A DNA stretch of 64,000 nucleotides from an uncultured bacterium (GTDB lineage Bacteria; Krumholzibacteriota; Krumholzibacteriia; Krumholzibacteriales; Krumholzibacteriaceae), in NCBI GenBank assembly GCA_963813815.1, contig CAWFAD010000009.1:6851-70850 (forward strand), read 5' to 3'. Shown here in pieces: positions 6,851 to 62,821 of the stretch. Within the stretch, counting starts at the first letter, position 1, and the number at the start of each line of letters is the position of its first letter. The position numbers and the translations under genes were made by a program. Below the pieces are notes generated by a model, which was not told the origin of the DNA, searched no databases, and saw only the letters and a list, made by a program, of their open reading frames with translations.

Positions 6851-7561
6851 TCACCGCGGAAAGAAGAACTCCCCGCAGAGACACGACCTGCCGTCCGCGA
6901 CCGGGGAACGAAGCGTTTTGGCGGCGGAGGCTTTCCCGGCGCCCTTCTTCGCCGCGGCGGAGGGGGCGCGGCCGATGATCGTTCCATCGCTGAAAATCGC
7001 CTCGTTCGTGAGAAGCGCCACGGTGACAGCCTCCCGCGCCTCGTCCCCGACGGCGAATCGCTCGATCATCCCGCTCACGATCCCCTTGAGAAGCGGCTCC
7101 CGCACGGCGAGAAAGTCGCCGGCCGGGTCGTCCGTGCCGATGCGGAAGCGGCTCGCCACGACGCGGTCGGTCATTTCGCTCAGGCCCGCCGGATCCTCCG
7201 GGAACGCGTGCGGGCCTATCTCGAGACACTTGAGACCGATGATATCGATCTCCTCCCCCGCGGCGTCCGCGACGGCGAGCACCTCGTCGTAGAGCTTCGT
7301 AAGGTCGTGGAGGACGAGGAAGTTGATGCCGGCGAGCTCGTCCGAGCTGAACTTCTCCTTGCGCTCGAGAGCCCCGAGAGCGGCCTGGAGGTCGCGGTTC
7401 ACCCCGCGCGATTCGAAGCCGAGAACGGCGAGCACCGTTTCGTCCCCGCTGCCCGATACCTCGACGAGAACCGCGCCGAGCTTCCCCGGCGCGCTCCCCG
7501 TCTCCATGCCGATGATGAGCCGCTTCTCTTTCTTCCTGAGAGCATCGAGACGTTTTTTCAA
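6851..7561 (-). CDS. ASKHA-fold (sugar-kinase/actin-like) protein resembling the N-terminal part of anhydro-N-acetylmuramic acid kinase (AnmK); only ~237 aa; TTG start with GGAGG RBS
   Basis: GMETGSAPGKLGAVLVEV resembles the AnmK G(V)MSGTSLDGxDxALxEI phosphate-1 motif; EIDIIGLKCLEIGPH resembles DIVAIGCHGQTVWHEP; the conserved GGxGAPL region is lacking. Adjacent to nagZ/spoIID. Low certainty. Confidence 0.35.
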   Translation of the reverse strand: MKKRLDALRKKEKRLIIGMETGSAPGKLGAVLVEVSGSGDETVLAVLGFESRGVNRDLQAALGALERKEKFSSDELAGINFLVLHDLTKLYDEVLAVADAAGEEIDIIGLKCLEIGPHAFPEDPAGLSEMTDRVVASRFRIGTDDPAGDFLAVREPLLKGIVSGMIERFAVGDEAREAVTVALLTNEAIFSDGTIIGRAPSAAAKKGAGKASAAKTLRSPVADGRSCLCGEFFFPR

Positions 7562-7685
7562 CGAATACCTCCGGCTGATCCCGGGGTCGCTGACCGGAGC
7601 GCCCTTCGCCCCGCGGCGAAACGGGCGCTTCCGCTCGAGGCGATTGTACGGAAGGCCATCGGAGGAGGTAAAGATATTTTTACGG

Positions 7686-10600
7686 CTACTCGAGCTTGAC
7701 GATCTTCCCCTCGATATCGATGCTCCGTCCCCCGCGATCGACCCGCAGAACGTAGATGTAGGTTCCGTTCGCGACGCGGTCTCCCGCCAGATCGCGCCCG
7801 TCCCATACGATCGAATGGGGGCTGATGAAGCTCGCCGCGAGAAGATCTCCCGTCCCGAGGGCAAAGCTTCTCACGAGAACGCCGCTCACGTTGTAAATGT
7901 CGATGCGGCCGGCGTCGGCGGCGAGATTCATCGTGTAGACGATGTTGGTCTCGCCCCTGAACGGGTTCGGGAAGTTGAAAACGTCGACGACGAGCGCGTC
8001 CCCGGTGACGGCGAAGACGATGTCCCGCGAGAACTCCCCGGTCTTCACCGTGAAAACGCGCGTTCCCGCCGGGAGCGTGCGCTCGAAGGAGGCCTCCCAG
8101 CGGAGCGAGTCGGCCGGATCCGGGACGACGAAATGAACGCCGTCCTCCGGGATGCCGTCGATGGAAAGCGTCGGCGGAGACGCGAGATAGGCCGGGAAAT
8201 CCGCCGTGACGGTGAAGGTTCCCGTCGGCGGGCTCTCCACGCCCGGCAGTATCTCGAGGTAGTCGTTGTAAAAGAGACGAATCTGCGTCGCGATCGAGAC
8301 CTCGAGCCTCCCCGCCTCTTCCCCCTCCGGCGTCGCCACGCCCCACACGAGGAGCTCGTCGGCCGGATCGATCGTGTACCGCACGTCCGCCCGGTACGAG
8401 CGGGAGAAGGTCTCGTTCGTGTCGAGCAGCGCGGTGATCCCGAGCGAATCCGACCAGCTCTCGCCGTCGATCGCGAGGGAGACCGGCCCGATCGCGACGA
8501 CGTCGCTCGCGGTGAGGCGCAACGCCACCTCGTTCGTGCCGTTTCGGGCCCGGAGCGTTCCGGTTCCGACGGGCTCGAACCCCTCGCCCCAGTCCGCCTC
8601 GAGGCGGAGCAGCGGCGGGCCCGGATCCACCCGCAGCATGGGATCGCCGAGGAGATGGTAGCGCAGAATCTGATCGACCCCGAACGATGTCTGTCCCATG
8701 TGCTCGATCTCGGCCTGGGTAATCATCTCCCCGAGAATCCAGTGGGCCCCCGTGTACTCGTTGAGCGGCGCGACCGAATCGACGGGGGGGCGCTTGAACA
8801 CGTTCTCGATGAGACATTCGGCGAGCTCGGAGTTCTGCGAGAGGTACTCGAACGCGCCGCTCGCGTACGTGGAGATCGCGCCGCCGCCCGGCTTGAAGAG
8901 CAGCTGCTCGCTCATGCAGTCGCCCTGCTGCCCGACGTACGACGAGTAGGAGAGCTCCTGCCAGACGGAGAAATCGCTGATGTGGCAGCCGAACGCGCCG
9001 AAGACGAACGGAATGGCGGTCCGCAGGCTGTCGATGTCGTTGTAGAACTGGAGAGCGAAGGCCGACTCCGTCGTGAGGACGGCGCGGTTCGCGTGCCCCT
9101 GATACAGGTGCAGCAGACAGCCCCTGTTGAGCGCCGCGACGAGCGCCGGCGTGAACGTCCGGCGCGTCAGATCGCGGGCGCGCGAGAACACCTCGCTCCC
9201 GTATTCATCCAGATTGGGATGGGCGGGGGCCGTATAGGGAGCGAGAAAGAGCCGGTTGACCTCGAATCCTCCCGGGAGCGAGCGCTCGACGATGGCGCCG
9301 CAGGAATCGGTGCTCCACTCGAACTCGAGCTCGTACGGACGGTACCGGTAATCGCCGCCGGTACCCGACCAGGCGTCGTCCGAAAAGAGCACGACGCGCC
9401 GGCGCCAGAGGTCGTCCGGCTCGGCGCTCTCGTCGCGATAGAGCTTGGTGAGGAGGGCGCGCAGCTCCACGTCGCGCCCGACCGGGAACCGCCCGATGAA
9501 AACGTCCGGATAGGCGTCGGCGCCCGGATTGCCGTCGAGAAAGGCGTACCACTTGTCGGACGAAACGGTCTCGTCGTCGTACGATCCGGTGACGCTCTCC
9601 ACGTAGCTGTACGAGGGCACGTAATCGGGCGGAGAGCCGCGCAGATCTCCATCCGGGTAGGCATAGATACGCTTGTGATCCTCGCTCGCGTCCCCCACGA
9701 GCAGCACGTATTCGACGCCCCAGCGGTCGAAGGCGTCCTTGATGAATCGCTTGATCGCGGCCGCGTGCGGCCTGCCGCCGTTGTACTCGTCGAAGACGTC
9801 CTCGACGTCCGCGGTAAAGACGCGGTATCCCTGCGCCCTCCGCCAATCGACGTACTCTCCGATCCGCTGCAGGAAATCCCCGTGCGAGACGACGAGCGTT
9901 TGATAGCTCCCCGGCGTCGCGCGAAGCGCGGACGGCGCGTCCACCTCCGCCGCCCGAGCGGGAAACGCGGTTCCGGCGAGACCCCCGAGCGCGATGAAAC
10001 GGCGCGGCGAATAGCTCTCCTCGAGGTTGAGAGCGAGCTTCCACCCTCCGCTCCCGTCCTCCGCGAAATCGGACGCGCCGAGCTCGCGATACACGGGATG
10101 CCGCGCGTCGGTGATCTCGACGAGAAGGCCCGAGGAAACGGTGAATCCGGCTATTTCGATTCCCGCGGCTCCGCCCGCCGGATCGAGCGTGAACTCGAGT
10201 GCGTTCCCGCTCGCGACGAACCGGCCGGGATGCTCGACCGTAAAATCGTTCACGAGGTGCGCGAAGTCCGCGTCGCAGACGACGACGAGCTCGTTCTGGC
10301 CGTCGGCGAGCCAGATGGCCGGAAGGTCGGCGAAGTGAAAGGTCTTCGCCTCCTTGGCGCCGAAGCCTCCGGCGCCGATGAGATGCGTGCCGGCGCCGTT
10401 ACGCAGGCTGAAGGAAATCGTATGGTCGTAGCCGAGCCCGTCTCCCCCCTGGATCCTGATCGTGATCGCCCAAACCCCCGTCGAGGAGGGCTCGTGCAGA
10501 TCGAAGGGGATCGCGTACTCCCGGTAGTCCTTCCCCTTGCGAAAATAGAAATCGAATGTTCCCGGCACGGCGTTTTTCATGAACGCCGTGTCCTCGCGCT

Positions 10601-11735
10601 CCAGCTTCACGGCCCGGTACGACGAGACGGGGACCTCGTAGGAGGGGGCGAGCGGTATCCCGGAGCTCATGAGCGCGCCCGCCGAGCCCTCCTCGAGCCA
10701 GAGAACGTTGTCGCCGGTATAGAGAGCGTCCCGATCTCCCGCGAGCGAGTCGTCCTTGACGCCGAGCGCGTAGAAGTAGAGGCGATCGTCTCCGTCGAGC
10801 ACGCCGGCGCTTCCGCCCGCTCCCTCGCGCACGAGGAGCGGCACGTCGACCGCGCGAACGAAGCCGGGCGCCGCCGCGTCGTAGTAGCGCTTTCGGAGCG
10901 CAATCTCTCCCGGCGCGAGCCCCGGAGAGAGCCCCGCGGCGATGAGGGAGTCGGCGCGGATGACGTAGAGCCCCGTATCCGGCACGCGGAGCTTGAGGCA
11001 CTTCCCCTCGAGCGCCGGCGCGGCGGCGGCGAGCCCCGAGGGGAGAGGCAGACGATAGGCCGAAACGTCGGCGGGGTTGACGAGCAGGTTGCCGTAGAGC
11101 CGTTTCCATCCTCCCGAGAGGGGCGTCTCGACGGCCCCCGCTTCGCCGAGCGGCGCGCGCGGCGCCTCGAAGCTCACCGTGAGAAGGATGCGGCGGGCGA
11201 GGCGCGCCTCCCCCCGCTCGTCGATCGAGAGAGGATTCACCCTCACGGGGAGAACGCGCTGGCGTCCCATGAAGGACGGCTCGAGCGCCGAGGCGAGCGG
11301 CGGCGCGTCCCCCGCGCGCCACGGATCGGGCGGAAGGTATCGCTCGGACGAGGGGAGGCCGTCGCGCCCCTCGACGAGCCGCTCGCCGTACACGCGGGCG
11401 AGAGCCACGCGCCCGAGGCTCTCCTCCTCGAGCACGGAAAACGATAAACGCGAGGCGCCCGCGGCGGGTATCGCCACGTGATACGTCCTGCCGGGGAGCT
11501 CCGCCGCTCCCGGAGGCGAGAACGTTCCGAATCCGTCGATGAGAACCCGAACCGCCCCATCTTCCGCCCGCTCGATGCGGGGGGAGGGAATCGCGATCTC
11601 GAAGGTCAGCGAGCCGCGGCCCGACGAAACGAGACGGGCTCCCTCCGGGGAAGCCGCGGCGCGCCCCGGCATGGCGCACACGACAACGCAGAGGGCGCCT
11701 GCGACGAGCGCCGCTCGACTCACCTGTCCGATCAC
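7686..11735 (-). CDS. Large secreted peptidase C25 (gingipain-like) family protein with C-terminal FlgD-Ig / T9SS-type sorting-like domain
   Basis: Signal peptide ALVAGALCVVVCAMPGRAAA after GTG start with GAGGTGA RBS; C25 catalytic His (LYQGHANRAV) and Cys (FGAFGCHISDF) motifs; propeptide/Ig-like regions; CTD FNFPNPFRGETNIVY...GTYIYVLRVDRGG...KIVKLE. The upstream portion of the 1636-aa ORF belongs to a separate frameshifted small gene. Confidence 0.75.
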   Translation of the reverse strand: MIGQVSRAALVAGALCVVVCAMPGRAAASPEGARLVSSGRGSLTFEIAIPSPRIERAEDGAVRVLIDGFGTFSPPGAAELPGRTYHVAIPAAGASRLSFSVLEEESLGRVALARVYGERLVEGRDGLPSSERYLPPDPWRAGDAPPLASALEPSFMGRQRVLPVRVNPLSIDERGEARLARRILLTVSFEAPRAPLGEAGAVETPLSGGWKRLYGNLLVNPADVSAYRLPLPSGLAAAAPALEGKCLKLRVPDTGLYVIRADSLIAAGLSPGLAPGEIALRKRYYDAAAPGFVRAVDVPLLVREGAGGSAGVLDGDDRLYFYALGVKDDSLAGDRDALYTGDNVLWLEEGSAGALMSSGIPLAPSYEVPVSSYRAVKLEREDTAFMKNAVPGTFDFYFRKGKDYREYAIPFDLHEPSSTGVWAITIRIQGGDGLGYDHTISFSLRNGAGTHLIGAGGFGAKEAKTFHFADLPAIWLADGQNELVVVCDADFAHLVNDFTVEHPGRFVASGNALEFTLDPAGGAAGIEIAGFTVSSGLLVEITDARHPVYRELGASDFAEDGSGGWKLALNLEESYSPRRFIALGGLAGTAFPARAAEVDAPSALRATPGSYQTLVVSHGDFLQRIGEYVDWRRAQGYRVFTADVEDVFDEYNGGRPHAAAIKRFIKDAFDRWGVEYVLLVGDASEDHKRIYAYPDGDLRGSPPDYVPSYSYVESVTGSYDDETVSSDKWYAFLDGNPGADAYPDVFIGRFPVGRDVELRALLTKLYRDESAEPDDLWRRRVVLFSDDAWSGTGGDYRYRPYELEFEWSTDSCGAIVERSLPGGFEVNRLFLAPYTAPAHPNLDEYGSEVFSRARDLTRRTFTPALVAALNRGCLLHLYQGHANRAVLTTESAFALQFYNDIDSLRTAIPFVFGAFGCHISDFSVWQELSYSSYVGQQGDCMSEQLLFKPGGGAISTYASGAFEYLSQNSELAECLIENVFKRPPVDSVAPLNEYTGAHWILGEMITQAEIEHMGQTSFGVDQILRYHLLGDPMLRVDPGPPLLRLEADWGEGFEPVGTGTLRARNGTNEVALRLTASDVVAIGPVSLAIDGESWSDSLGITALLDTNETFSRSYRADVRYTIDPADELLVWGVATPEGEEAGRLEVSIATQIRLFYNDYLEILPGVESPPTGTFTVTADFPAYLASPPTLSIDGIPEDGVHFVVPDPADSLRWEASFERTLPAGTRVFTVKTGEFSRDIVFAVTGDALVVDVFNFPNPFRGETNIVYTMNLAADAGRIDIYNVSGVLVRSFALGTGDLLAASFISPHSIVWDGRDLAGDRVANGTYIYVLRVDRGGRSIDIEGKIVKLE

Positions 11736-11869
11736 GCGGGGTTCACCTCGTTTCCAGGGGCGCTGCGATGGAGAGCGCGGGAGACGGCGAGGAGCCGCCA
11801 TGTCCTGCATTGAATCTATTTTCCCGCTCCCGAAAAGACAAGCCGAAAATGGCGAAGGCCGAAAACGCC

Positions 11870-11895
11870 GATGGGGACCCATCAGGGTCCCCATC
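11870..11895 (-). terminator. Hairpin terminator after small secreted protein paralog 1
   Basis: GATGGGGACCC-atca-GGGTCCCCATC perfect 11-bp stem. Confidence 0.6.
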
Positions 11896-11927
11896 GGCTT
11901 CACTATGCGCACCGAGTAAGAGCGTTT

Positions 11928-12467
11928 AGAAAAGGCTCTTAATTGCGCCCCAGCTCGACTCTTCAGTCGCCACGCCGCACGGCTGGTTGAGATACAGCTG
12001 GGTGAGAATCGTGAGAGGATAAATCGGGATAACCGAGCTCGCAGCTCGCGATCTGGAGAAGGTAGGGCAGGCTGAGCGGCTTGCCTTCGACCTTGATGAT
12101 CGAGGCGGTCGGAGTCGCGATGCTCATGCAGGTAATCTTCTGCGCCCAGACCCAATCCATCCAGCAGCTCGCGTAGGACACGCTGATGCCGGCGGCCCAG
12201 TCGCCGAGGGTGAGGTTGATGTCGGGGTTCGTCGTCGTGCCCGTCGAAATGATCCCGGCCGGAAGGATGACACGGTACTCGGCGGCCCGAATGCCGGTGC
12301 CGTCCTGGTTGACCATGAACACGTAGCAGTCGAACGGCGTGTACATGCCGGTGGCTCACGGAGCACAGGCTGTGCGCCGCATCGCTGTAAAGCCCTACGT
12401 ATTTCGCTGCGTTCGCGGAGCCGGTGATGAGCAGAAGCATCGTTCCAAGGATGAGCGCCTTTTTCAT
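11928..12467 (-). CDS. Small secreted Cys-containing protein, paralog 1 (two apparent frameshifts in C-runs at ~12026-12029 and ~12348-12354)
   Basis: Signal peptide MKKALILGTMLLLITGSANA with GGAGG RBS; reconstructing two single-base indels restores ~75% identity to paralog 2, including the identical C-terminus SWGAIKSLF*. Confidence 0.6.
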
Positions 12468-12691
12468 GTTGTCTTTCCTCCGAACTAGTGTTGCGGCGAG
12501 CCGGTCTCTGATTCTGGCTGCCATGCTAACCAATTTATTTGTTCGCCGTTTCCTTTCCGGATTACTCCTTTCCGCCGTCAAGGCCGCTGAGCTCAATTGG
12601 TAGTTAACAAACCGCTATTTCTGACACACGACAATTGTACCATACCCGGGAAATTTTGTAAAGCGGCATGAGCGGGAAATGATAAAAAAAT

Positions 12692-12718
12692 GATGGGGAC
12701 CCAAATCGGATCCCCATC
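12692..12718 (-). terminator. Hairpin terminator after paralog 2
   Basis: GATGGGGA-cccaaatcgga-TCCCCATC; same stem as the paralog-1 terminator. Confidence 0.55.
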
Positions 12719-12744
12719 ATTATCAATCAGTTAGAGCCGCTGTC

Positions 12745-13278
12745 TTAGAAAAGGCTCTTTATCGCGCCCCAGCTCGTTTCCTCGGTGCCGATAACACACG
12801 AGCAGTTGAGGGCCAGGTGGTTGAGAACCTTGAGCGGGTAGATCGGGAAACCGAGCTCGCAGCTCGCGACCTGGAGGAAGTAGGGCAGGCTGAGCGGCTT
12901 GCCTTCGACCGTGATGAATCCCGGCGCCGCCACTCCGAGGCTCAGGCAGCTGATGTGCTGCGGCCACACCCACGTCTGCCAGCAGGTCATGAACGACACG
13001 CTGATGCCAGCGGCCCAGTCGCCGAGGGTGAGGTTGATGTCGGGGTTGGTCGTCGTGGCCGTCGAAATGATACCGGCCGGAAGAATGAGTCTGTACTCGG
13101 CCGCCTGAATGCCCCGCTCGGGATAGCTCATGAGAACCCAGCACTCGAAGGGCGTGTAGGGCATAACGGTCACGCTGCAGCTGACGCGGCCCGCGTCGGC
13201 GTAGAGACCGACGTACTGCGCGTTCGCGGCGCTCGCGAGGACGAGAATCGCGCTGGCAATCAAAAGCACCTTCTTCAT
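12745..13278 (-). CDS. Small secreted Cys-containing protein, paralog 2 (177 aa, unknown family)
   Basis: AAGGAG RBS; signal peptide MKKVLLIASAILVLASAANA; motifs GLYADAG, NPDINLTLGDWAAGISV, ASCELG shared with paralog 1. Confidence 0.65.
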   Translation of the reverse strand: MKKVLLIASAILVLASAANAQYVGLYADAGRVSCSVTVMPYTPFECWVLMSYPERGIQAAEYRLILPAGIISTATTTNPDINLTLGDWAAGISVSFMTCWQTWVWPQHISCLSLGVAAPGFITVEGKPLSLPYFLQVASCELGFPIYPLKVLNHLALNCSCVIGTEETSWGAIKSLF

Positions 13279-13417
13279 TTCCTTCAACTCCTTCTCTGCT
13301 TTTCGGTGAAGGTGGTTGGATGAGCGCGGATGCGCCCACCCAACCACAATCCCTACTTCATAACTCAACGACCCGATCCACGGTCTGCTTCTTGCGCTTC
13401 GATCTTCAGCGTTCGCC

Positions 13418-14083
13418 CTAGAAGCAGCGGTGCTGATAGTGCGTTCCCATGAGCGCGAAATCGCTCAGGTTGACCGTGTTGTCGTCGTTGAAATCGGCGC
13501 AGGCGTTGTAACCCGTGGCGCCGAGGCTCTTGTTGAACGTGGCGGCAAACGGAATGATATCGGACAGATCGTTCTTGCAGTCAGGCAAGCCGCCAGCACC
13601 GGTCATGTCCGGACCCTTCACGATGATAGCGATACAGAGCGGGTTCGGGTTCGGGCACGGTTTTGCCTTGATAACCTTGCCCTGAATGGCCCACCAAATA
13701 CCGGCTGTGAGAGAGCAACCGCCGCCGGCAACGCGACCGGTGAAGGTCGTGCGGCCGTTGATGCCCGTCAACGAATCGGCAACGACGGGCTGCGAGCACA
13801 GGCAGAACGACTTCGCTGCGTCGCACGAGTTCAGCCAGTAATCCGTCCAGGGAATGCCCTGAATCGCAAGGTTCGAGGCATCTCTCGCTTCGACCCAGAT
13901 GTAGTCTGCCGCGCCGCCGCAGGCAGTGCGGATGTACTCGAAATCGCCGGCCGGGCAAATCGAAAGCTTCATAGTCGTGCAGCTCACGCCAGCGTTGCTG
14001 TAACAGTCATCCACATCACCGGCAAAAGCGGAGGTTGCCATCAGGAGCATCAATGCGAAAGCAACCACTTTTCCTTTGAACAT
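13418..14083 (-). CDS. Secreted Cys-rich protein with dockerin-like Ca-binding motif at the C-terminus
   Basis: Signal peptide MFKGKVVAFALMLLMATSAFA; about 15 Cys; DFNDDNTVNLSDFALM matches the dockerin/EF-hand-like DxNxDxxVNxxD pattern. Confidence 0.55.
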   Translation of the reverse strand: MFKGKVVAFALMLLMATSAFAGDVDDCYSNAGVSCTTMKLSICPAGDFEYIRTACGGAADYIWVEARDASNLAIQGIPWTDYWLNSCDAAKSFCLCSQPVVADSLTGINGRTTFTGRVAGGGCSLTAGIWWAIQGKVIKAKPCPNPNPLCIAIIVKGPDMTGAGGLPDCKNDLSDIIPFAATFNKSLGATGYNACADFNDDNTVNLSDFALMGTHYQHRCF

Positions 14084-14360
14084 CGCGTTAACCTCCTAAA
14101 CCTCCTACAAAGGTTCGGGGACGTACAGAAACAGGCCTTGGGGGTAGCGTCAACCTCCTTCCGCCGGAACAGTGTTGGAGATACCATCACTTACTCGACA
14201 GGGGATATTTTATCATATGCGAAGCAATTATGTCAATGCCAAATGCCGGATTCGGGGGGCTCGCGCCCGGCCGCCCGGGGCTCGTCGAACCCCGGACGGC
14301 GGCGCATTCTAACCTATTGTGGAATAAGTAGATGGTTGGCGTTTGCCGGGGGTGGTCCGG

Positions 14361-20882: not shown

Positions 20883-22814
20883 CTAAATACTCGACAGCTT
20901 GCCGTTCTTGTAGAGGAATCTGTCTCCCCGCGCCAGCGGAAGTCCCTGCGGCACGACGCACCCGGCCTTCCGCGCATCCCCCTCGAAGTCGTAGTAGCGC
21001 TTGCAGCTGCTGCCGCCGTGCATCGGAAAGATGCACTCGGGGCTCAGCTTGTTCACGGCGAAATAGACGCCTTTCTTGACGATCTCCTGATCGCCGAACC
21101 CGCACCCCGAGACGGGGAAGAACGCGAAATCGATCTCGCGGCCGAGCCCCGCGAGGTAATCGATCTCGGCGGCGTAGGCGCCGTCGACGTTGGCGTCGCG
21201 GTTATGATGGTCGCCCGAGTGCAGGAAGGTGACGCCGTCGACCGTGACGAGGAATCCGACGCCGGCGTCGGTCGAGCGGATCGCCGTCACGTCGATCCCG
21301 CCGATGCTCTTCGTTTGACGCGGATCGATGCGCTCGCACGCCACGTTCGTATCCGGCTCCTGCCCAAACACCCACGTGATGCCGTCGAGCCCCTCGTTCC
21401 ATTTGAAATTCGCCTTGTTGTAATGATCGACGTGCGACGTGTGCGAAACGAAAGCCGTCACCTTCTTGCCCCGCAGATCCCCGGGGTTGACGCAGCCGTT
21501 GAGAAGGCTCGGCGAATCGGGGGCGCGGCCGTCCTGAAAATAGTCGAAGATCATGACGTTGCTCTTCGTCTGCACGATCCAGCCGGAGTGACCCGTGTAG
21601 TATACGATCGCTTCTCCGTCGCCGAGCTTCTTCGAGAGGAGCGCGGCCGCCGAGGCTTCCTTGCCGGCGCCCTTTCCACCCTTCGCCTTGATGGCGCGCG
21701 CCACTGACGCGTTGCCGTGCCTCGCCGCGTAGTGGAGCGGCGTGTTTCCGAAGCGATCCTCGACGTTCAGGGACGCTCCCTTCTCGATGAGCAGCTCCGC
21801 GACGTCCCCATACCCCTTGGCCGCCGCCAGATGCAGCGCCGTGGCGCCGAAGTTGCCGTCGAGGGCGTCCATTTTCGCTCCCGCCGAAATGAGATATCGC
21901 GTTAAATCGGGGTTCCCCCGTTCGGCCGCGATGAGCAGAGGGGTGAGCCCCTCGTTGTTCACGAGATCGATCTCGCACCCTTTCTCCACGAGGAGCCGCG
22001 CGAGTTCGGCGCTGCCGCGATACGCGAGACGGTGCAGAGCGTTGTTGCCGAAAGGATCGACGCCTTTCGCGTCCGCTCCCCGCGCGAGGAGGAGCTCGAT
22101 GAGATCGCTCGATCCCGCGATCATGGACACCGCGAGCGGAGATTGACCGTTGTGGCTCGTTTCGTTCGGATCGGCGCCGTTGTCGAGGAGATAGGCGGCC
22201 ATCTCCGTCCGGCCGCGCATGGCGGCCGCTACGAGTGGCGTGTTGCCGAACTGATCGCAGCCGGCGGCGAGAGAAGCCCCATTCGACACGAGCTCCTTGA
22301 GGGCGGCGACGTCGCCGCGATAGCAGGCGAAATGAACGAGCGACGATCCCTGCGTCGTCCGGTCGTCGAGCTTTCCGCCCTTCGAGGCGAGATAGCGCAC
22401 CAGCTCGAACCTGCCGCGCGAACCGGCGAACAGCACGGCGGTCATGCCGTTATCGTCCTTCGAGTTTATATCGACCCCACGCGAGAGAATAAGATCCAAT
22501 ATCTCCCGGCTTTCGCCGCATGCCGCCAGATGCAACGCGTTGCTGTTCTCGTTGTCGCCGAGATTCGGGTCGGCGCCCCTGTCGAGAAGAAGACGCGCGG
22601 CCTCCACGTTGCCGATGATGATCGCCACGTGAAGCGGCGGGTTGCCGTCCGCGTCTTTGAGACCGAGAACGGATTTGTCGGCCGCGACGAGACGCTCGAT
22701 CGTCCCGACGTCCCCGAGGCGGACCGCCTCGTGGATCTCTCCCGCCATGAGCCCGGCGGCCGAGCCGAGAACGGCGAGAGCGAGCAAACATATACGCATG
22801 ATACGCATGGGCAC
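20883..22814 (-). CDS. Secreted ankyrin-repeat protein fused to a C-terminal metallo-beta-lactamase-fold hydrolase domain
   Basis: Signal peptide MRICLLALAVLGSAAG; about 10 ANK repeats (DADGNPPLHVAIIIGNVEAARLLLDRGADPN, etc.); MBL motifs SHTSHVDH and SGDHHNRD. Confidence 0.8.
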   Translation of the reverse strand: MPMRIMRICLLALAVLGSAAGLMAGEIHEAVRLGDVGTIERLVAADKSVLGLKDADGNPPLHVAIIIGNVEAARLLLDRGADPNLGDNENSNALHLAACGESREILDLILSRGVDINSKDDNGMTAVLFAGSRGRFELVRYLASKGGKLDDRTTQGSSLVHFACYRGDVAALKELVSNGASLAAGCDQFGNTPLVAAAMRGRTEMAAYLLDNGADPNETSHNGQSPLAVSMIAGSSDLIELLLARGADAKGVDPFGNNALHRLAYRGSAELARLLVEKGCEIDLVNNEGLTPLLIAAERGNPDLTRYLISAGAKMDALDGNFGATALHLAAAKGYGDVAELLIEKGASLNVEDRFGNTPLHYAARHGNASVARAIKAKGGKGAGKEASAAALLSKKLGDGEAIVYYTGHSGWIVQTKSNVMIFDYFQDGRAPDSPSLLNGCVNPGDLRGKKVTAFVSHTSHVDHYNKANFKWNEGLDGITWVFGQEPDTNVACERIDPRQTKSIGGIDVTAIRSTDAGVGFLVTVDGVTFLHSGDHHNRDANVDGAYAAEIDYLAGLGREIDFAFFPVSGCGFGDQEIVKKGVYFAVNKLSPECIFPMHGGSSCKRYYDFEGDARKAGCVVPQGLPLARGDRFLYKNGKLSSI

Positions 22815-59000: not shown

Positions 59001-59227
59001 GAGCGTAGCTTCGAGCGCCGGGCGCGCTCGGGATCGCGCCCGAGCGGTCTCAGGCCCCTTTCTCCCGCTCCTTGAGCCGCCGGAACATCTCTCTTATGTC
59101 GAGCTGAGCCGCGGATCGCCACGTAGACGGTGACGGTCGAGTACCACACGAGAACGGCGATCGTGAGGAGCCCCCAGAAGGGATGGTCTTTCAGCATTTC
59201 AACGAGCATCATGAGCGCTTCCCCCGC

Positions 59228-60803
59228 TCAGGCCCGCTTCGCCGCGGGCTTCAGGAGCGATCCGACGACCATCGCCACGGCGACCGCGGCGTAGGTCCCG
59301 ATGTTGACGAAATTGTCGCCGATATGGTATCTCGCCCAGCCCATCGTCTGCGTCAAGGACCCGGCCGTCCTCGCATGACCTCGCCGCCCGGCCTCGTCGA
59401 GAAGCGGCACCGTCGACCTGCACGAAGATATTCAAGCGCAGCGACAGCACCGGCAGCGCCGCGCCGATGACGATCGCCGCGATCGCGCCCCAGCTGTTCG
59501 CCCGCTTCCAGTAGCAGCAGGTGATGAGCAGCACCGACATGCTCGCGAGATAGATCGTGCCCGTCGTCTGGCAGTACTCCCAGAGGTTTCCCTCGAGCTT
59601 GTACCAGAGCCCCCAGAAGAGGAGAAAGACGCCGATTATGGCGATGATGCACCGGTTCCAGAGGATGCCCTTCTTCTCCGACCAGGGTTTCCTCCTGCGG
59701 AGCGGCGCGAGGATATCGTTGTAGATGACGCTCCCCCACGTGAGCATGTAGGAGGAGTCGGTGCTCATGTCGGCCGCGAGCATCGCCGCGACGAGGAGCC
59801 CCATCATGCCGGCGGGAAGAATCTGGCTCAGAAGATACGGCATGGCGAAAAGAGAGCCGTCCCTCTCGCCGAACTGGAGGCCGATGCGCGCGAGCACGTC
59901 GGGAGCGACCATGGCGAGAGCGGCGATGCCCCAGATCGCCGGGATCACCCAGCGCGCCACGAAGAAGAAGGCCGTTCCCGTGTAGACCCGCCGGCCCGTC
60001 GCGCTGTCCTTCGCCGCGAGGAGCCGCGCGATGATCGTCTGCCACGTGAGGACGGCCGCCGTGTTCGTGAGAATGTTCGAGAGGACAAACGGCCACCCGA
60101 GCCCCGGAGCCACGAACGGGTTGAAGCCCCCCGCGCCGTAGCTCGCGCCGACGGTGGCCGTGAGCCTGCTCCACCCCACGGCGCCGAGAATGAGGAACGT
60201 CACGACGAGGAGCCCCGCGCTCATCACGACGAACTGGAGAAAGTCCGTCACGAGCACGGAGAGCATGCCGCCGAGAATCGTGTACACCATGACGGCGAGA
60301 AGGAGGACGGTCATGGCGAGCTCGAGATACTCGAGGTTCATGCCGGTCGCGACCACGAGAAACTGCCCGCCGACCCGGAGAAAGACCCCCATGTTGAGAA
60401 GCCCGCCGAGAACGATCACGACGCCCGCGAGCCAGCGGACGAAGGGGCCGAACCGCTGCTCGAAGAGCTCCGGGATCGTCATGACGTTCGAGTCGCGGAG
60501 CGGCTTCACGCAGAATCCCGTGTATCCCACGAGGAACATTGCCGCGCACTGGCAGAGCCCCGGGATCGTCCCGGCGAAGCCGCGGGTGTATCCGGCCTGC
60601 GCCGTGTACATGCAGGTCACGATGCCGAACTCGGTCGCGGCCAGGGAGGCGATGCCGAGGTAGACGTTCATCTCGCGGCCGGCCACGATGAAGTGCTCCA
60701 CCTTGACCACGTACTTGCGGACCATGACGCCCGCGACCATCGTGGCGAGGAGGTAGAGCCCGACGATGCCGCCGTCGATGAGCATGTTGAAGTCGCTGTT
60801 CAT
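59228..60803 (-). CDS. Sodium:solute symporter family (SSF) transporter; frameshift near 59410-59420
   Basis: 13-TM SSF-like sequence MNSDFNMLIDGGIVGLYLLATMVAG...; the C-terminal TM is encoded in ORF 59228-59410 in another frame. Confidence 0.7.
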
Positions 60804-60835
60804 GGAACCCGCCGCGGCGCAGGAGCGGCCCGAAT

Positions 60836-61688
60836 CACCCGTTCTTGCGCTCCGGATAAAACTCGACCTTCTCGTCGAGCATGCGTAGGTGCACCGTATC
60901 GCGTCCGCGGTCCCGACGAGCTTGAGCTCGCCCCTCCCGATCCGCGTTCTCTTGAGAAGGCCCTCTCTCAGCAGCCTTTCCTGCAGCAGCGTCGTCCTTC
61001 TCGTGGAGTAGATCCTCTCGGGATACACGTATGAGCTCACGACGATGGTCTCCCCTTGGTAGCTCACGACCTTCGCCGGAAGGGGCTTCTCGGTGTAGAG
61101 CGGCACGGACAGCCTATCCCTGATGAGGTGCTCGATATGGTGGAAGAAGGTGAAGGGAAAGGCCACGTCGTAGAACAGGACCTTCCCGTTGAGCGTTTTG
61201 AGCTTGTCGAAGGGGCTTCCTTCGCCGCATGGATAGACGCACCTCTCGTGCCCTTCGACGATCCAGGCGCTCTTCTCTCCGAAGGCGAGAATGGGATGGA
61301 CCGGGTTCAGACTTCTCATCACGCCGTTTCTTCTTCTAAAGAGCTCCGATATGAGACCCATCATCGACGGCGTCTTCCTCACGTCGAACGTCGGTTGCGT
61401 CATCAGATACTCCAAGGAGGAGGAGCCGTAGGGCAAGGAGACCATGAGAAGGTTGCCGCTCGGCCCGACCGCCTCGAGCAGGCACTCGATAATGTCCTGC
61501 GCGGCGCCCTTGAAGCCGTTGTTGCTCTTGAACGAGCTGTGCACCATCACCGTATCCCCGGGAGCCACTCCGACCTTTCGAAGCGCCGCCATGAACGCGC
61601 CTTTGTCGTAGCCGAAGAAGCGATCGGCGATCATTTTGTCCAGCTTGTTATAGCGCCTCTTTATCGCGAGCTTCCTCTTGACGCTCAT
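60836..61688 (-). CDS. AAC(3)-family aminoglycoside N3-acetyltransferase-like protein; frameshift at ~60890 so the ORF reads through into the SSF gene
   Basis: GDTVMVHSSFKS...LLEAVGPSGNLLMV...; natural C-terminus ...DTVHLRMLDEKVEFYPERKNG* found in the -1 frame; lower GC than the bulk of the window. Confidence 0.55.
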
Positions 61689-61806
61689 GTTGCGCCATAT
61701 CCAGCTCTGGGCGATGACTTTCTTCAGCAACTCGCACCCCTTTGGCTCTAGCTCGAAACCGCTTTCCTCGAATCTTCTCTGAATATCGTTCTCGCCGCGT
61801 TCTCGC

Positions 61807-62821
61807 TCAGTATCCGTATGCAAGCGCATCGTCGGATTTCACGCCCGCTCGCTCGAGGGCGTACAGCAACCGCATGCCCATCGCGATCTCGCTCGCGTAG
61901 AGCGCGTCGGACCCGAAGAGCACCCTCTCAGGCTCCACATTGGTCAGAAGCGCCACAATGGCGCTCTCTTGAAGCCCCGATATGTCGATGTGCACGTTCC
62001 CATAGGCGCGGAGCAGCTTCTTCAAAGCGGGGACGACCGCGTCGTCGATTTCCGATGGAGTCATTCCATAGGCGCCTCCATGGGCGATTATCACCGGCGA
62101 GGACGACTGGAAATCGATGTCCGCGAGATTCGACATTTCCGCGAAATGCGCGTTCGCGTCGCCGAGGATCTCGCTTCTGCCGCCATGAATGACGACGGGA
62201 AGGCCGAGGCCGCCGCTCGCCGCGACGATGCATTCGACCCGTTCCTTCCCCTCGGGAGCGGCCAGATCGATTCTCGGTGACGTTCGGATGGATCTTGACC
62301 GCGACGATGCCGTAGTCCTCGACCTGGCCCTTTAAATACGAGGCGACATCTTCGTTTCTCACCGTGTTGGGAACGGCGCCGGCGAGCCGAAAGCGATCGT
62401 CGCCCTTGAACATCCGGAACGACGCGTCCATCTGCTCATCCATCGTTCCCGTCGCCGGGGCCACCGGCAGGAGCAGCGCCTTGTCTATGCCCAGAATATC
62501 GAAATAGTCCCCGAACACCTTGGGGCCCGTGTGGGAGTAGATCCGGCGAAGCATCATCGGCAGTATCCGCCGGTACTCCTTCGCCGCGTAGTTCGCGTCC
62601 TTCTCCTCATGCCCCTGCTTGAAATCGGCCAAGGAAGGGCTTCGATACGCCGCCGTGCCGAGCCCGAACAACCCCTTGGCCTCCGGGCGCTCCTCGTAGC
62701 TATGCACCCCGAAGATGACTTCCGTCGGATGCACGTGCGCATCGTACGTCTTGAAGGCCTTGTGGACCTCCTTGAGCTTCCCGATGTACCTGTCGATGTC
62801 TTTGTTCCAGGGAGGAGTCAT
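61807..62821 (-). CDS. Amidohydrolase-2-family TIM-barrel metal-dependent hydrolase; frameshift between ~62140 and 62280
   Basis: YDAHVHP at the N-terminus (ORF 61928-62821) and LFGSDALY at the C-terminus (ORF 61807-62136) in different frames. Confidence 0.55.

Follow-up and report, generated by a model that had tools for sequence, protein, structure and literature searches.

Here we describe a locus of four genes on the minus strand of a 64,000 nucleotide stretch of DNA from an uncultured Krumholzibacteriaceae bacterium (contig CAWFAD010000009.1, positions 6,851 to 70,850; hereafter referred to as the window). The locus encodes a cysteine-rich secreted protein with a dockerin module, two paralogous small secreted proteins (P2 and P1) that end in the nine residue tag SWGAIKSLF, and a large cysteine peptidase of family C25. 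Based on the comparison of homologous loci, the conserved unit is a trio of the dockerin protein, two to five tagged proteins and the C25 peptidase, which keeps together throughout the candidate phylum and beyond. Its probable role is to build a protein assembly on the cell surface or to anchor one there. We tentatively read the locus as a cell-envelope module in three parts, conserved among bacteria of the Candidatus Krumholzibacteriota type and working by the mechanism proposed below, and give this reading somewhat less than an even chance.

Read from 5' to 3' the minus strand carries the gene of the dockerin protein (13418..14083; 221 amino acids (aa)), P2 (12745..13278; 177 aa), P1 (11926..12467) and the C25 peptidase (7686..11735; 1349 aa including a signal peptide, with a start that agrees with public protein P0308). 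These coordinates bear out the four genes, their place and their strand as given in a preliminary description made from the sequence alone.

Conservation of the locus was studied from two directions. A search anchored on the small proteins found 78 genome loci. Bins of Candidatus Krumholzibacteriota or UBP1 account for nearly all of them, WOR-3 and Latescibacteria bins for a few and a Spirochaetota bin for one; up to the neighbourhood count 83 loci were fetched. A C25 ortholog was found just downstream of the tagged genes in 32 of these 83 and the dockerin gene upstream in 27. All 24 loci that have both a dockerin gene and a C25 gene show two to five tagged genes in between, on the same strand, and across these 24 loci the tail subtypes are position-specific and their order is fixed. 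A search anchored on the peptidase yielded 80 metagenome loci, in which sequences at least 40% identical were considered as orthologs. Tagged genes were present directly upstream of every ortholog whose upstream sequence extends for 1.2 kb or more (16/16) and the dockerin gene was also present wherever at least 3.3 kb was available (9/9). The preliminary description had linked the small proteins to the C25 peptidase, with a lack of such co-localisation set beforehand as the refuting test, and the link holds in the 24 loci as well as in the 16 peptidase-anchored ones.

A more distant group of peptidases, at 30-33% identity, is always preceded by three tagged genes, the tails of which read TTWG[Q/K/G][V/I]K[A/S]LYR, and by the dockerin gene in all six loci with enough upstream sequence, which together with the nine orthologs amounts to 15/15. 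At this distance the neighbours p235, a conserved protein of about 235 aa, and SpoIID are lost and the trio is retained. Since both search directions agree and p235 and SpoIID are lost at 30-33% identity, the trio can be regarded as the conserved unit. The downstream genes encoding p235, SpoIID and the GH3 enzyme were considered as part of the module but rejected, given that they are lost at 30-33% identity while the trio persists. Among peptidase relatives at 25-29% identity, tagged genes were found 1.5-3 kb upstream in 11 loci and none in approximately 19.

The cysteine-rich protein consists of a signal peptide, an immunoglobulin (Ig)-like beta-sandwich (approximately residues 22-156) and a C-terminal dockerin module (residues 150-217; 13433..13636, minus strand) with two loops of the calcium-binding type, each followed by a helix. 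Loop 2 is canonical (D197-x-N199-x-D201-x-x-x-N205-x-x-D208) and nearly invariant. Loop 1 has a five residue insertion in the window protein and is canonical in shorter orthologs (D-I-N-A-D-C-F-V-N-L-S-D). Hence the protein presents the two loops D-x-[N/D]-x-D-x-x-x-[N/D]-x-x-D with their subsequent helices that are expected of a dockerin. A family profile compared with the PDB gave eight matches at E-values up to 10, seven of which are dockerin-containing chains that align on residues 150-217 with both calcium-binding loops. These include the X-module-dockerin (XDoc) of Acetivibrio cellulolyticus ScaA (4wi0_B, E 5.8e-6; 4u3s_B, E 8.6e-5) and chains from B. cellulosolvens (2y3n_B, E 9.8e-5) and C. 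thermocellum (5k39_B, E 3e-3). Pfam Dockerin_1 (PF00404) did not match the window protein at E-values up to 1 and reached one of 30 family members at a subthreshold E-value of 0.017; NCBIfam gave no match to the protein. The AlphaFold2 model, with a predicted local distance difference test (pLDDT) score of 83, shows two helices (173-182 and 206-216) after a beta-sandwich, and its best fold matches in the PDB are the XDoc chains 4u3s_B and 4wi0_B, such that the predicted layout resembles an XDoc pair. The profile matches identify the C-terminus as a true, type-II-like dockerin, by which the "dockerin-like" of the preliminary description is substantiated.

The family of the dockerin protein is well conserved: the best 120 of 279 matches are 53-97% identical, with the orthologs among them at 53-73%, and most fetched loci have a single copy. 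In some lineages the gene is tandemly multiplied, with four copies in L063 (5116-8154) and three in L044 (8559-9215, 10872-11528 and 13666-13941), of which two are identical. One homolog, P0242, is named "type 1 fimbria pilin" in a single Joint Genome Institute (JGI) record and "hypothetical protein" in all others. Dockerin-like segments were also detected in large proteins that are cargo of a type IX secretion system (T9SS), beside a Pfam cohesin, in L016 and L055; these matches are weak (E-value approximately 1e-4 with an in-house hidden Markov model), were not confirmed by Pfam and are not relied upon.

The preliminary description did not recognise the family of the small proteins. As far as sequence libraries are concerned this stands: P2 and the other small proteins have no Pfam match at E-values up to 1 and no NCBIfam match, they do not belong to the cohesin family PF00963 by sequence profile, and exact-sequence look-ups of public records returned no informative protein names. 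The predicted structure is recognisable. The AlphaFold2 model of P2, with an overall pLDDT of 87.9 and values above 90 in most of the core, is a beta-sandwich (residues 22-160) with the nine-stranded jelly-roll topology of cohesins. In a Foldseek search of the PDB the 23 best matches are all cohesins (E-values 2.4e-5 to 3.9e-4, probability 1.0), with template modelling (TM) scores of 0.55-0.71 when normalised by target length. We therefore describe the small proteins as cohesin-like in predicted fold and not as cohesin family members.

The family is large. A word-indexed search retrieved 38 homologs of 99-197 aa, mostly 175-191 aa, and an exhaustive profile search retrieved 2276 clusters at 50% identity, 837 of which have an E-value up to 1e-10. 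Genomes among the fetched loci have at least 9-12 tagged proteins each. The same cohesin-like domain is also found at the distal tip of surface proteins of 600-2466 aa with Ig repeats. Out of 184 proteins with the domain, 142 are short (up to 260 aa) and 42 are long.

The beta-sandwich of P2-type proteins is followed by 9-17 residues only. In P2 this tail, of which SWGAIKSLF (12748..12774, minus strand) forms the C-terminal nine residues, is modelled at a pLDDT of 48-61 as a short low-confidence helix that is not docked in the monomer model. Despite an overall identity of 30-85%, the W, A, I, K and S of the tag are invariant and the G is nearly so in 36 homologs. The consensus of 128 distinct tails is [I/V][G/A][T/V][E/Q][E/D][S/T][S/N/T]-W-G-A-I-K-S-[L/M]-[Y/F] followed by zero to two residues, the protein ending three to five residues past the conserved lysine. 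Tag codons differ synonymously among copies, which indicates that selection on the tag acts at the protein level; for the same reason conservation of the P1 and P2 3' ends at the RNA level was rejected. No NCBIfam model, including those of sorting domains, recognises the tag. Neither a hydrophobic helix nor a basic tail follows it, hence the small proteins lack the tripartite arrangement of LPXTG, PEP-CTERM or GlyGly-CTERM signals. They also lack the T9SS C-terminal domain of 70-100 residues, as judged by the absence of Por_Secre_tail, FlgD_ig and CHU_C matches. A literature search for the motif returned unrelated matches and no description, and a search on Krumholzibacteria in combination with cohesin, dockerin or T9SS returned nothing on the present system. 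The tag thus appears to be a previously undescribed C-terminal motif.

The tag ends 138 of the 142 short proteins with a cohesin-like domain and six of the 42 long ones. Of the long ones, 30 have Big_5 Ig repeats and then a C-terminal strand of the T9SS type, and none combines the tag with a T9SS-type end. Proteins that share a binding module therefore seem to end in one of two interchangeable devices, either the tag or the T9SS C-terminal domain. The tag also ends proteins of other kinds: a protein that reaches the Pfam Cohesin cutoff (L055, 17849-18391, ...SWGRVKALYK), a dockerin-bearing cysteine-rich protein from a WOR-3 genome (L065, ...SSWGLIKSIYRK), a Temptin_C/CxxCH protein (...GTWGILKSLFEE) and an unrelated family of secreted proteins around 230 aa long (MKLLKL...CPIHPNPGIY..., ending ...STWGAIKSLYE) that has no Pfam match. 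As such, the tag behaves as a modular element. Small CxxCH proteins of this kind were encountered on the minus strand in L029 (12224-12649), L030, L033 and L034; these have a Temptin_C match (E-value 4e-13) and Asp-rich repeats similar to TSP3, and end in ...RGTWGILKSLFEE. The tagged Temptin_C/CxxCH protein is cytochrome-like or calcium-binding. Members of the 230 aa family were found in L016 (17570-18256), L017 (10599-11282), L024 (1614-2351) and L055 (18697-19395), in the last case adjoining the tagged Pfam-positive cohesin and a T9SS cargo protein with a beta-helix domain.

The peptidase contains a Peptidase_C25 domain (PF01364; 8628-9896, minus strand) that scores 207.8 bits where the Pfam gathering cutoff is 23 and aligns with positions 2-374 of the 374 in the profile. 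Catalytic residues His881 (9093-9095, minus strand) and Cys917 (8985-8987, minus strand) reside in the motifs QGH881ANR and FGC917H, which correspond to the GHG and AC motifs in an alignment with RgpB, and both are invariant in 16 orthologs with identities down to 27%. Although the preliminary description called the enzyme gingipain-like, this is imprecise. The best solved relative is PorU (6za2_A, E 1.1e-13), compared with an E-value of 6.5e-3 for the gingipain RgpB (4ief_B), and the best NCBIfam model is that of the T9SS sortase PorU (NF033707), aligned over model positions 4-732 of 1095. At its C-terminus a putative FlgD_ig or T9SS-type domain is found (7749-7949, minus strand) that scores 28.4 against a cutoff of 27 for FlgD_ig, and remains below the cutoffs of Por_Secre_tail (14.8 versus 27) and TIGR04183 (17.4 versus 23); this region aligns with the C-terminal domain of PorU. 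Hence the peptidase is PorU-like rather than gingipain-like. No cohesin-like or dockerin-like module was found inside the peptidase, and no porV-like barrel gene was noted beside its gene within the window. The orthologs form a tight clade at 45-76% identity and approximately 1350 aa, beyond which identity drops to 27%. This clade occurs once per fetched locus. An additional, different C25 peptidase of 806 aa, with a Por_Secre_tail, was found in L084 (11757-14177, minus strand), among S8 peptidases of the T9SS cargo kind and 3 kb from a dispersed member of the small-protein family (P0038). Because of this separate peptidase, genomes with the tagged family appear to hold more than one C25 paralog.

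P2 and the frame-corrected P1 are 63% identical in protein and 74% in DNA. They share Sec-type signal peptides, internal motifs and long identical stretches, and both end in SWGAIKSLF followed by TAA (11929-11955 for the tag of P1); the signal peptides, internal motifs and shared C-terminus are as the preliminary description had them. The signal peptides are of the signal peptidase I type, ending in ...ANA/QY or ...FA/AD without a cysteine at +1, thus the lipobox of type V pilins is absent and the LPAM_1 match is below cutoff. Only one of the two paralogs of about 180 aa described previously is intact, however: the 542 nucleotides of P1 give a protein of about 178 aa once the frame is shifted by +1 twice, near 12347-12353 and again at approximately 12025, which had been missed, and public annotation contains a 127 aa fragment only (P0013). 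L006-L008, the closest relatives, have two intact copies of 175-176 aa. Since frame-corrected P1 has zero stop codons and retains all residues that are invariant in the family, it is either a very recent pseudogene or the result of an assembly error; the differences between P1 and P2 at codon positions 1, 2 and 3 (42, 34 and 57) fit both options alike. Truncated or fragmented tagged genes were also seen at the equivalent locus of other assemblies (L047, 8830-10498; L012, 10930-11325; L014, 8850-9116), and frameshifts in tandem tagged paralogs may be a recurrent feature of assembly or gene decay that is not specific to the window. One stretch of 69 nucleotides is 94% identical between P1 and P2, which hints at gene conversion.

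The identity of the 3' ends holds for protein but not for DNA, where 30 of 33 nucleotides are identical. Beyond the stop codon the core of a hairpin aligns and nothing else does. Hairpins are found 3' of P2 (12689..12721, minus strand; a 14 bp stem followed by a T-run) and 3' of P1, just upstream of the C25 gene (11867..11898, minus strand; a perfect 14 bp stem with a weak T-tail). They share the core GATGGGGAYCC...GGGTCCCCATC, which has two sites in the 64 kb where none is expected; a dispersed repeat element was thereby rejected. Folding energies are -26 and -37 kcal/mol (z approximately -4.2 and -4.5), hence both are far more stable than shuffled sequence. As for the near-identical terminators reported before, the two hairpins are indeed related but a proper T-run follows only the one of P2, which resembles an intrinsic terminator. 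Promoter-like sites were found upstream of P1 (TTTACA-17-TACAAT, 12634..12662, minus strand; 10 of 12 matches, with TG present) and of the dockerin-protein gene (TTGACA-18-TAAAAT with extended -10, 14207..14236, minus strand; 11 of 12 matches), the latter having a counterpart TTGACA-18-TAnAAT upstream of the orthologous gene in L007 and L001. Such separate promoters and terminators would fit abundant small components made alongside a scarce enzyme.

From the gene content, the fold and dockerin assignments, the catalytic pair, the invariant and modular tag and the two-way synteny observed here, we propose the following mechanism. The small proteins would be receptors with one module each, which bind the dockerin protein and possibly further proteins with a dockerin. 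The tag at their C-terminus would be a sorting or anchoring signal that replaces the T9SS C-terminal domain, and the neighbouring peptidase would recognise or cleave it in the fashion of a sortase, by which the receptors become fixed at the cell surface, where we presume they are located. Separate promoters and terminator hairpins would allow the small genes to be expressed more strongly than the peptidase. Binding between the cohesin-like proteins and the dockerin is a real possibility, albeit with the chances leaning against it; the one line of evidence for it is adjacency, the dockerin gene being adjacent in the 24/24 and 15/15 loci mentioned above. Handling of the tag by the PorU-like peptidase is more doubtful. 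PorU is a sortase-like transpeptidase with the cleavage specificity X/(G,S,A)(V,L,I), where the residue that precedes the cut is T, D, E or N (PMC4560394), and the tag junction [E/D][S/T]/S-W fits this specificity at subsites P1 and P1' only. The most far-reaching version states that the tail ...[E/D][S/T]S-W-G-A-I-K-S-[L/M]-[F/Y] is an undescribed, lineage-restricted sorting signal, a minimal substitute of the T9SS C-terminal domain, read and cleaved by a dedicated PorU-like C25 transpeptidase, by which receptors of the cohesin type, along with other small proteins, are attached to the outside of the cell in Krumholzibacteriota and in related bacteria of the Fibrobacteres-Chlorobi-Bacteroidetes (FCB) group. 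Taken as a whole this version is unlikely, but we consider it worth stating.

Several observations weigh against the proposed mechanism. Approximately 50 of the 83 fetched loci have tagged family members but no C25 gene within 10 kb, hence these are dispersed copies. The similarity of the small proteins to cohesins is at the level of predicted fold only: the family has no match among PDB sequences at E-values up to 10 and, when aligned by hhalign with a Pfam-positive cohesin, only the tail aligns. With 162.9 bits the peptidase falls far below the NF033707 equivalog cutoff of 420, and NCBI names its relatives just "C25 family cysteine peptidase". The tag does not offer the V, L or I that PorU prefers at subsite P2'. 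Finally, the mechanism leaves unexplained how the small proteins and the dockerin protein, both without a T9SS C-terminal domain, cross the outer membrane.

An alternative that we likewise rate as unlikely, though deserving attention, holds that the peptidase is the general T9SS sortase of the lineage and that the tagged and dockerin proteins are partner or accessory surface components, the tag being an uncleaved non-covalent anchor, for instance a short amphipathic helix with affinity for lipopolysaccharide, the outer membrane or a receptor protein. The genomes with the tagged family commonly encode T9SS-type cargo and so require a PorU-type enzyme in any case, the C25 clade is found just once per fetched locus and many tagged genes are distant from the peptidase. 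The modelled tail is, at low confidence, a short helix, in which the sequence would place W, I, L and F together and G, K and S on the opposite face. A generic membrane helix, on the other hand, does not require an invariant W-G-A-I-K-S in proteins that are only 30% identical, and the survival of the trio down to approximately 30% peptidase identity, while other neighbours change, argues for a specific tie and against loose co-location. Less likely still, the small proteins could be subunits of a surface fibre or layer in which the tag docks onto the next beta-sandwich, the dockerin protein serves as an adaptor or tip and subunit maturation is the task of the C25 peptidase. In type V pili, C25-family gingipains carry out pilin maturation and the pilins polymerise via conserved C-terminal strands. 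In favour of a fibre, loci have two to five tandem paralogs with position-specific subtypes in conserved order, a gene with its own promoter and terminator hairpin ahead of a large enzyme gene is typical of major subunits, and there is the JGI name "type 1 fimbria pilin" for P0242. The signal peptidase I signal peptides without lipoprotein cysteine differ from those of type V pilins though, the fold matches cohesins and not pilins, the tail is undocked in the monomer model, and a polymerisation strand would be odd on unrelated domains such as that of the cytochrome-like protein.

The preliminary description envisaged cognate inhibitors, chaperones or substrates of the C25 peptidase. Strict adjacency upstream of the peptidase gene speaks for dedicated inhibitors or chaperones, yet a family of 2276 clusters with at least 9-12 copies per genome, many far from any C25 gene, fits this role poorly. 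Moreover, giant T9SS cargo proteins with Ig repeats carry the cohesin-like domain at their distal tip, and its fold is that of a binding module rather than of a known C25 prodomain or inhibitor, which makes an inhibitor or chaperone very improbable. That the small proteins are substrates of the peptidase is a live option. Equally improbable is that a functional link does not exist and gene order reflects inherited synteny within one lineage. It is true that most loci come from one candidate phylum and that the downstream p235-SpoIID-GH3 genes are also syntenic among closer relatives, but the trio persists at 30-33% peptidase identity where downstream synteny is lost, and while the number of tagged genes varies their position is always between the dockerin gene and the C25 gene.

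Upstream of the four genes an RND efflux operon is found. Downstream of the C25 gene lie genes for a conserved protein of 237 aa with unassigned function, SpoIID and a GH3 enzyme; no carbohydrate-active domains were detected in the trio locus. The conserved protein, p235 (6851-7564, minus strand, between the C25 gene and SpoIID), has no signal peptide and no Pfam family; orthologs exist in L001, L003, L007 and others, and it is absent from the C25-SpoIID slot at 30-33% C25 identity. The segment 12600-14300 has a GC content of 58.0%, as reported before, compared with a mean of 65.6% for the window, which is lower than the roughly 70% then given. A foreign origin was rejected because GC at third codon positions of P2 (0.86) equals that of neighbouring genes and the same GC dip recurs in orthologous loci; the segment reflects composition and intergenic DNA and not horizontal transfer. 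An open reading frame (ORF) of 1636 aa (7686-12596, minus strand) was dismissed as an artefact in which the 5' part of frameshifted P1 reads without stop through intergenic DNA into the frame of C25; it stems from the high GC content and would mislead an ORF-based gene caller. Elsewhere in the window, 20883-22814 (minus strand) encodes a 643 aa protein that combines many ankyrin repeats with a weaker region of beta-lactamase fold (Lactamase_B_3), which is unusual for a bacterium. An ORF of 876 aa at 59199-61829 (minus strand) combines an aminoglycoside 3-N-acetyltransferase-like domain (Antibiotic_NAT) with a sodium:solute symporter; this may be a genuine fusion, or ORF calling joined two separate genes.

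The trio can be compared with several known systems. Ruminococcus flavefaciens ScaE has a single cohesin and an LPXTG signal, by which sortase anchors it to the wall; its binding partners are the XDoc modules of adhesin CttA and of ScaB (PMC12484212, PMC5934362). By analogy, both systems would have clustered genes for a single-cohesin protein with a C-terminal signal, an XDoc protein and a cysteine transpeptidase. The present organism, however, belongs to the Gram-negative FCB group, its signal is a nine residue WGAIK tag that has neither LPXTG nor a hydrophobic segment nor a basic tail, the candidate enzyme is a PorU-like member of C25 rather than of sortase family C60, the cohesin likeness is limited to the fold and the locus lacks carbohydrate-active domains. 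Type II cohesin-XDoc pairs (Acetivibrio cellulolyticus ScaA-ScaB, C. thermocellum CipA-SdbA) are similar in direct profile match, the insertion in loop 1 and the Ig-like module that precedes the dockerin; here the dockerin is found on a stand-alone 221 aa cysteine-rich protein instead of at the end of a scaffoldin, and its presumed partners lack detectable cohesin sequence similarity. PorU of Porphyromonas gingivalis removes the C-terminal signal and transfers its cargo to anionic lipopolysaccharide (PMC4560394, PMC8545088). It shares with the window peptidase a C25 domain with the His/Cys pair and, putatively, a T9SS-type C-terminal domain of its own, but the window peptidase is approximately 200 residues longer, scores far below the PorU family cutoff and has no porV-like barrel gene seen alongside, whereas its proposed substrates carry a nine residue tag in place of a folded C-terminal domain of 70-100 residues. 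The LPXTG/sortase, PEP-CTERM/exosortase and GlyGly-CTERM/rhombosortase systems also have a short lineage-restricted motif on unrelated secreted proteins and an enzyme that adjoins several genes of motif-bearing proteins, though they differ from the present case by the trailing transmembrane helix or basic tail and by enzyme family. Type V pili with C25 gingipains resemble the locus in tandem small beta-sandwich genes, conserved C-termini and a C25 peptidase; the small proteins described here lack a lipoprotein signal, have a predicted cohesin-like fold and stand next to a PorU-like and not Rgp-like peptidase.

The proposed system thus varies on two known kinds of process, assembly by cohesin and dockerin and the sorting of C-terminal signals by a cysteine transpeptidase, with a tag that appears to be undescribed. 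More than 2000 clusters of "hypothetical proteins" gain a fold, a genomic context and a testable role. The tag is a cheap and concrete experimental handle that could become a surface-display tag. Should the proposed mechanism hold, cohesin-dockerin assembly would be a conserved, operon-encoded feature of an uncultured Gram-negative phylum, beyond the Gram-positive producers of cellulosomes, and a PorU-type C25 peptidase would be tied to substrates without the canonical T9SS C-terminal domain. If the tag is truly a sorting signal that the peptidase cleaves, the trio would represent a Gram-negative counterpart of sortase-anchored scaffoldins.

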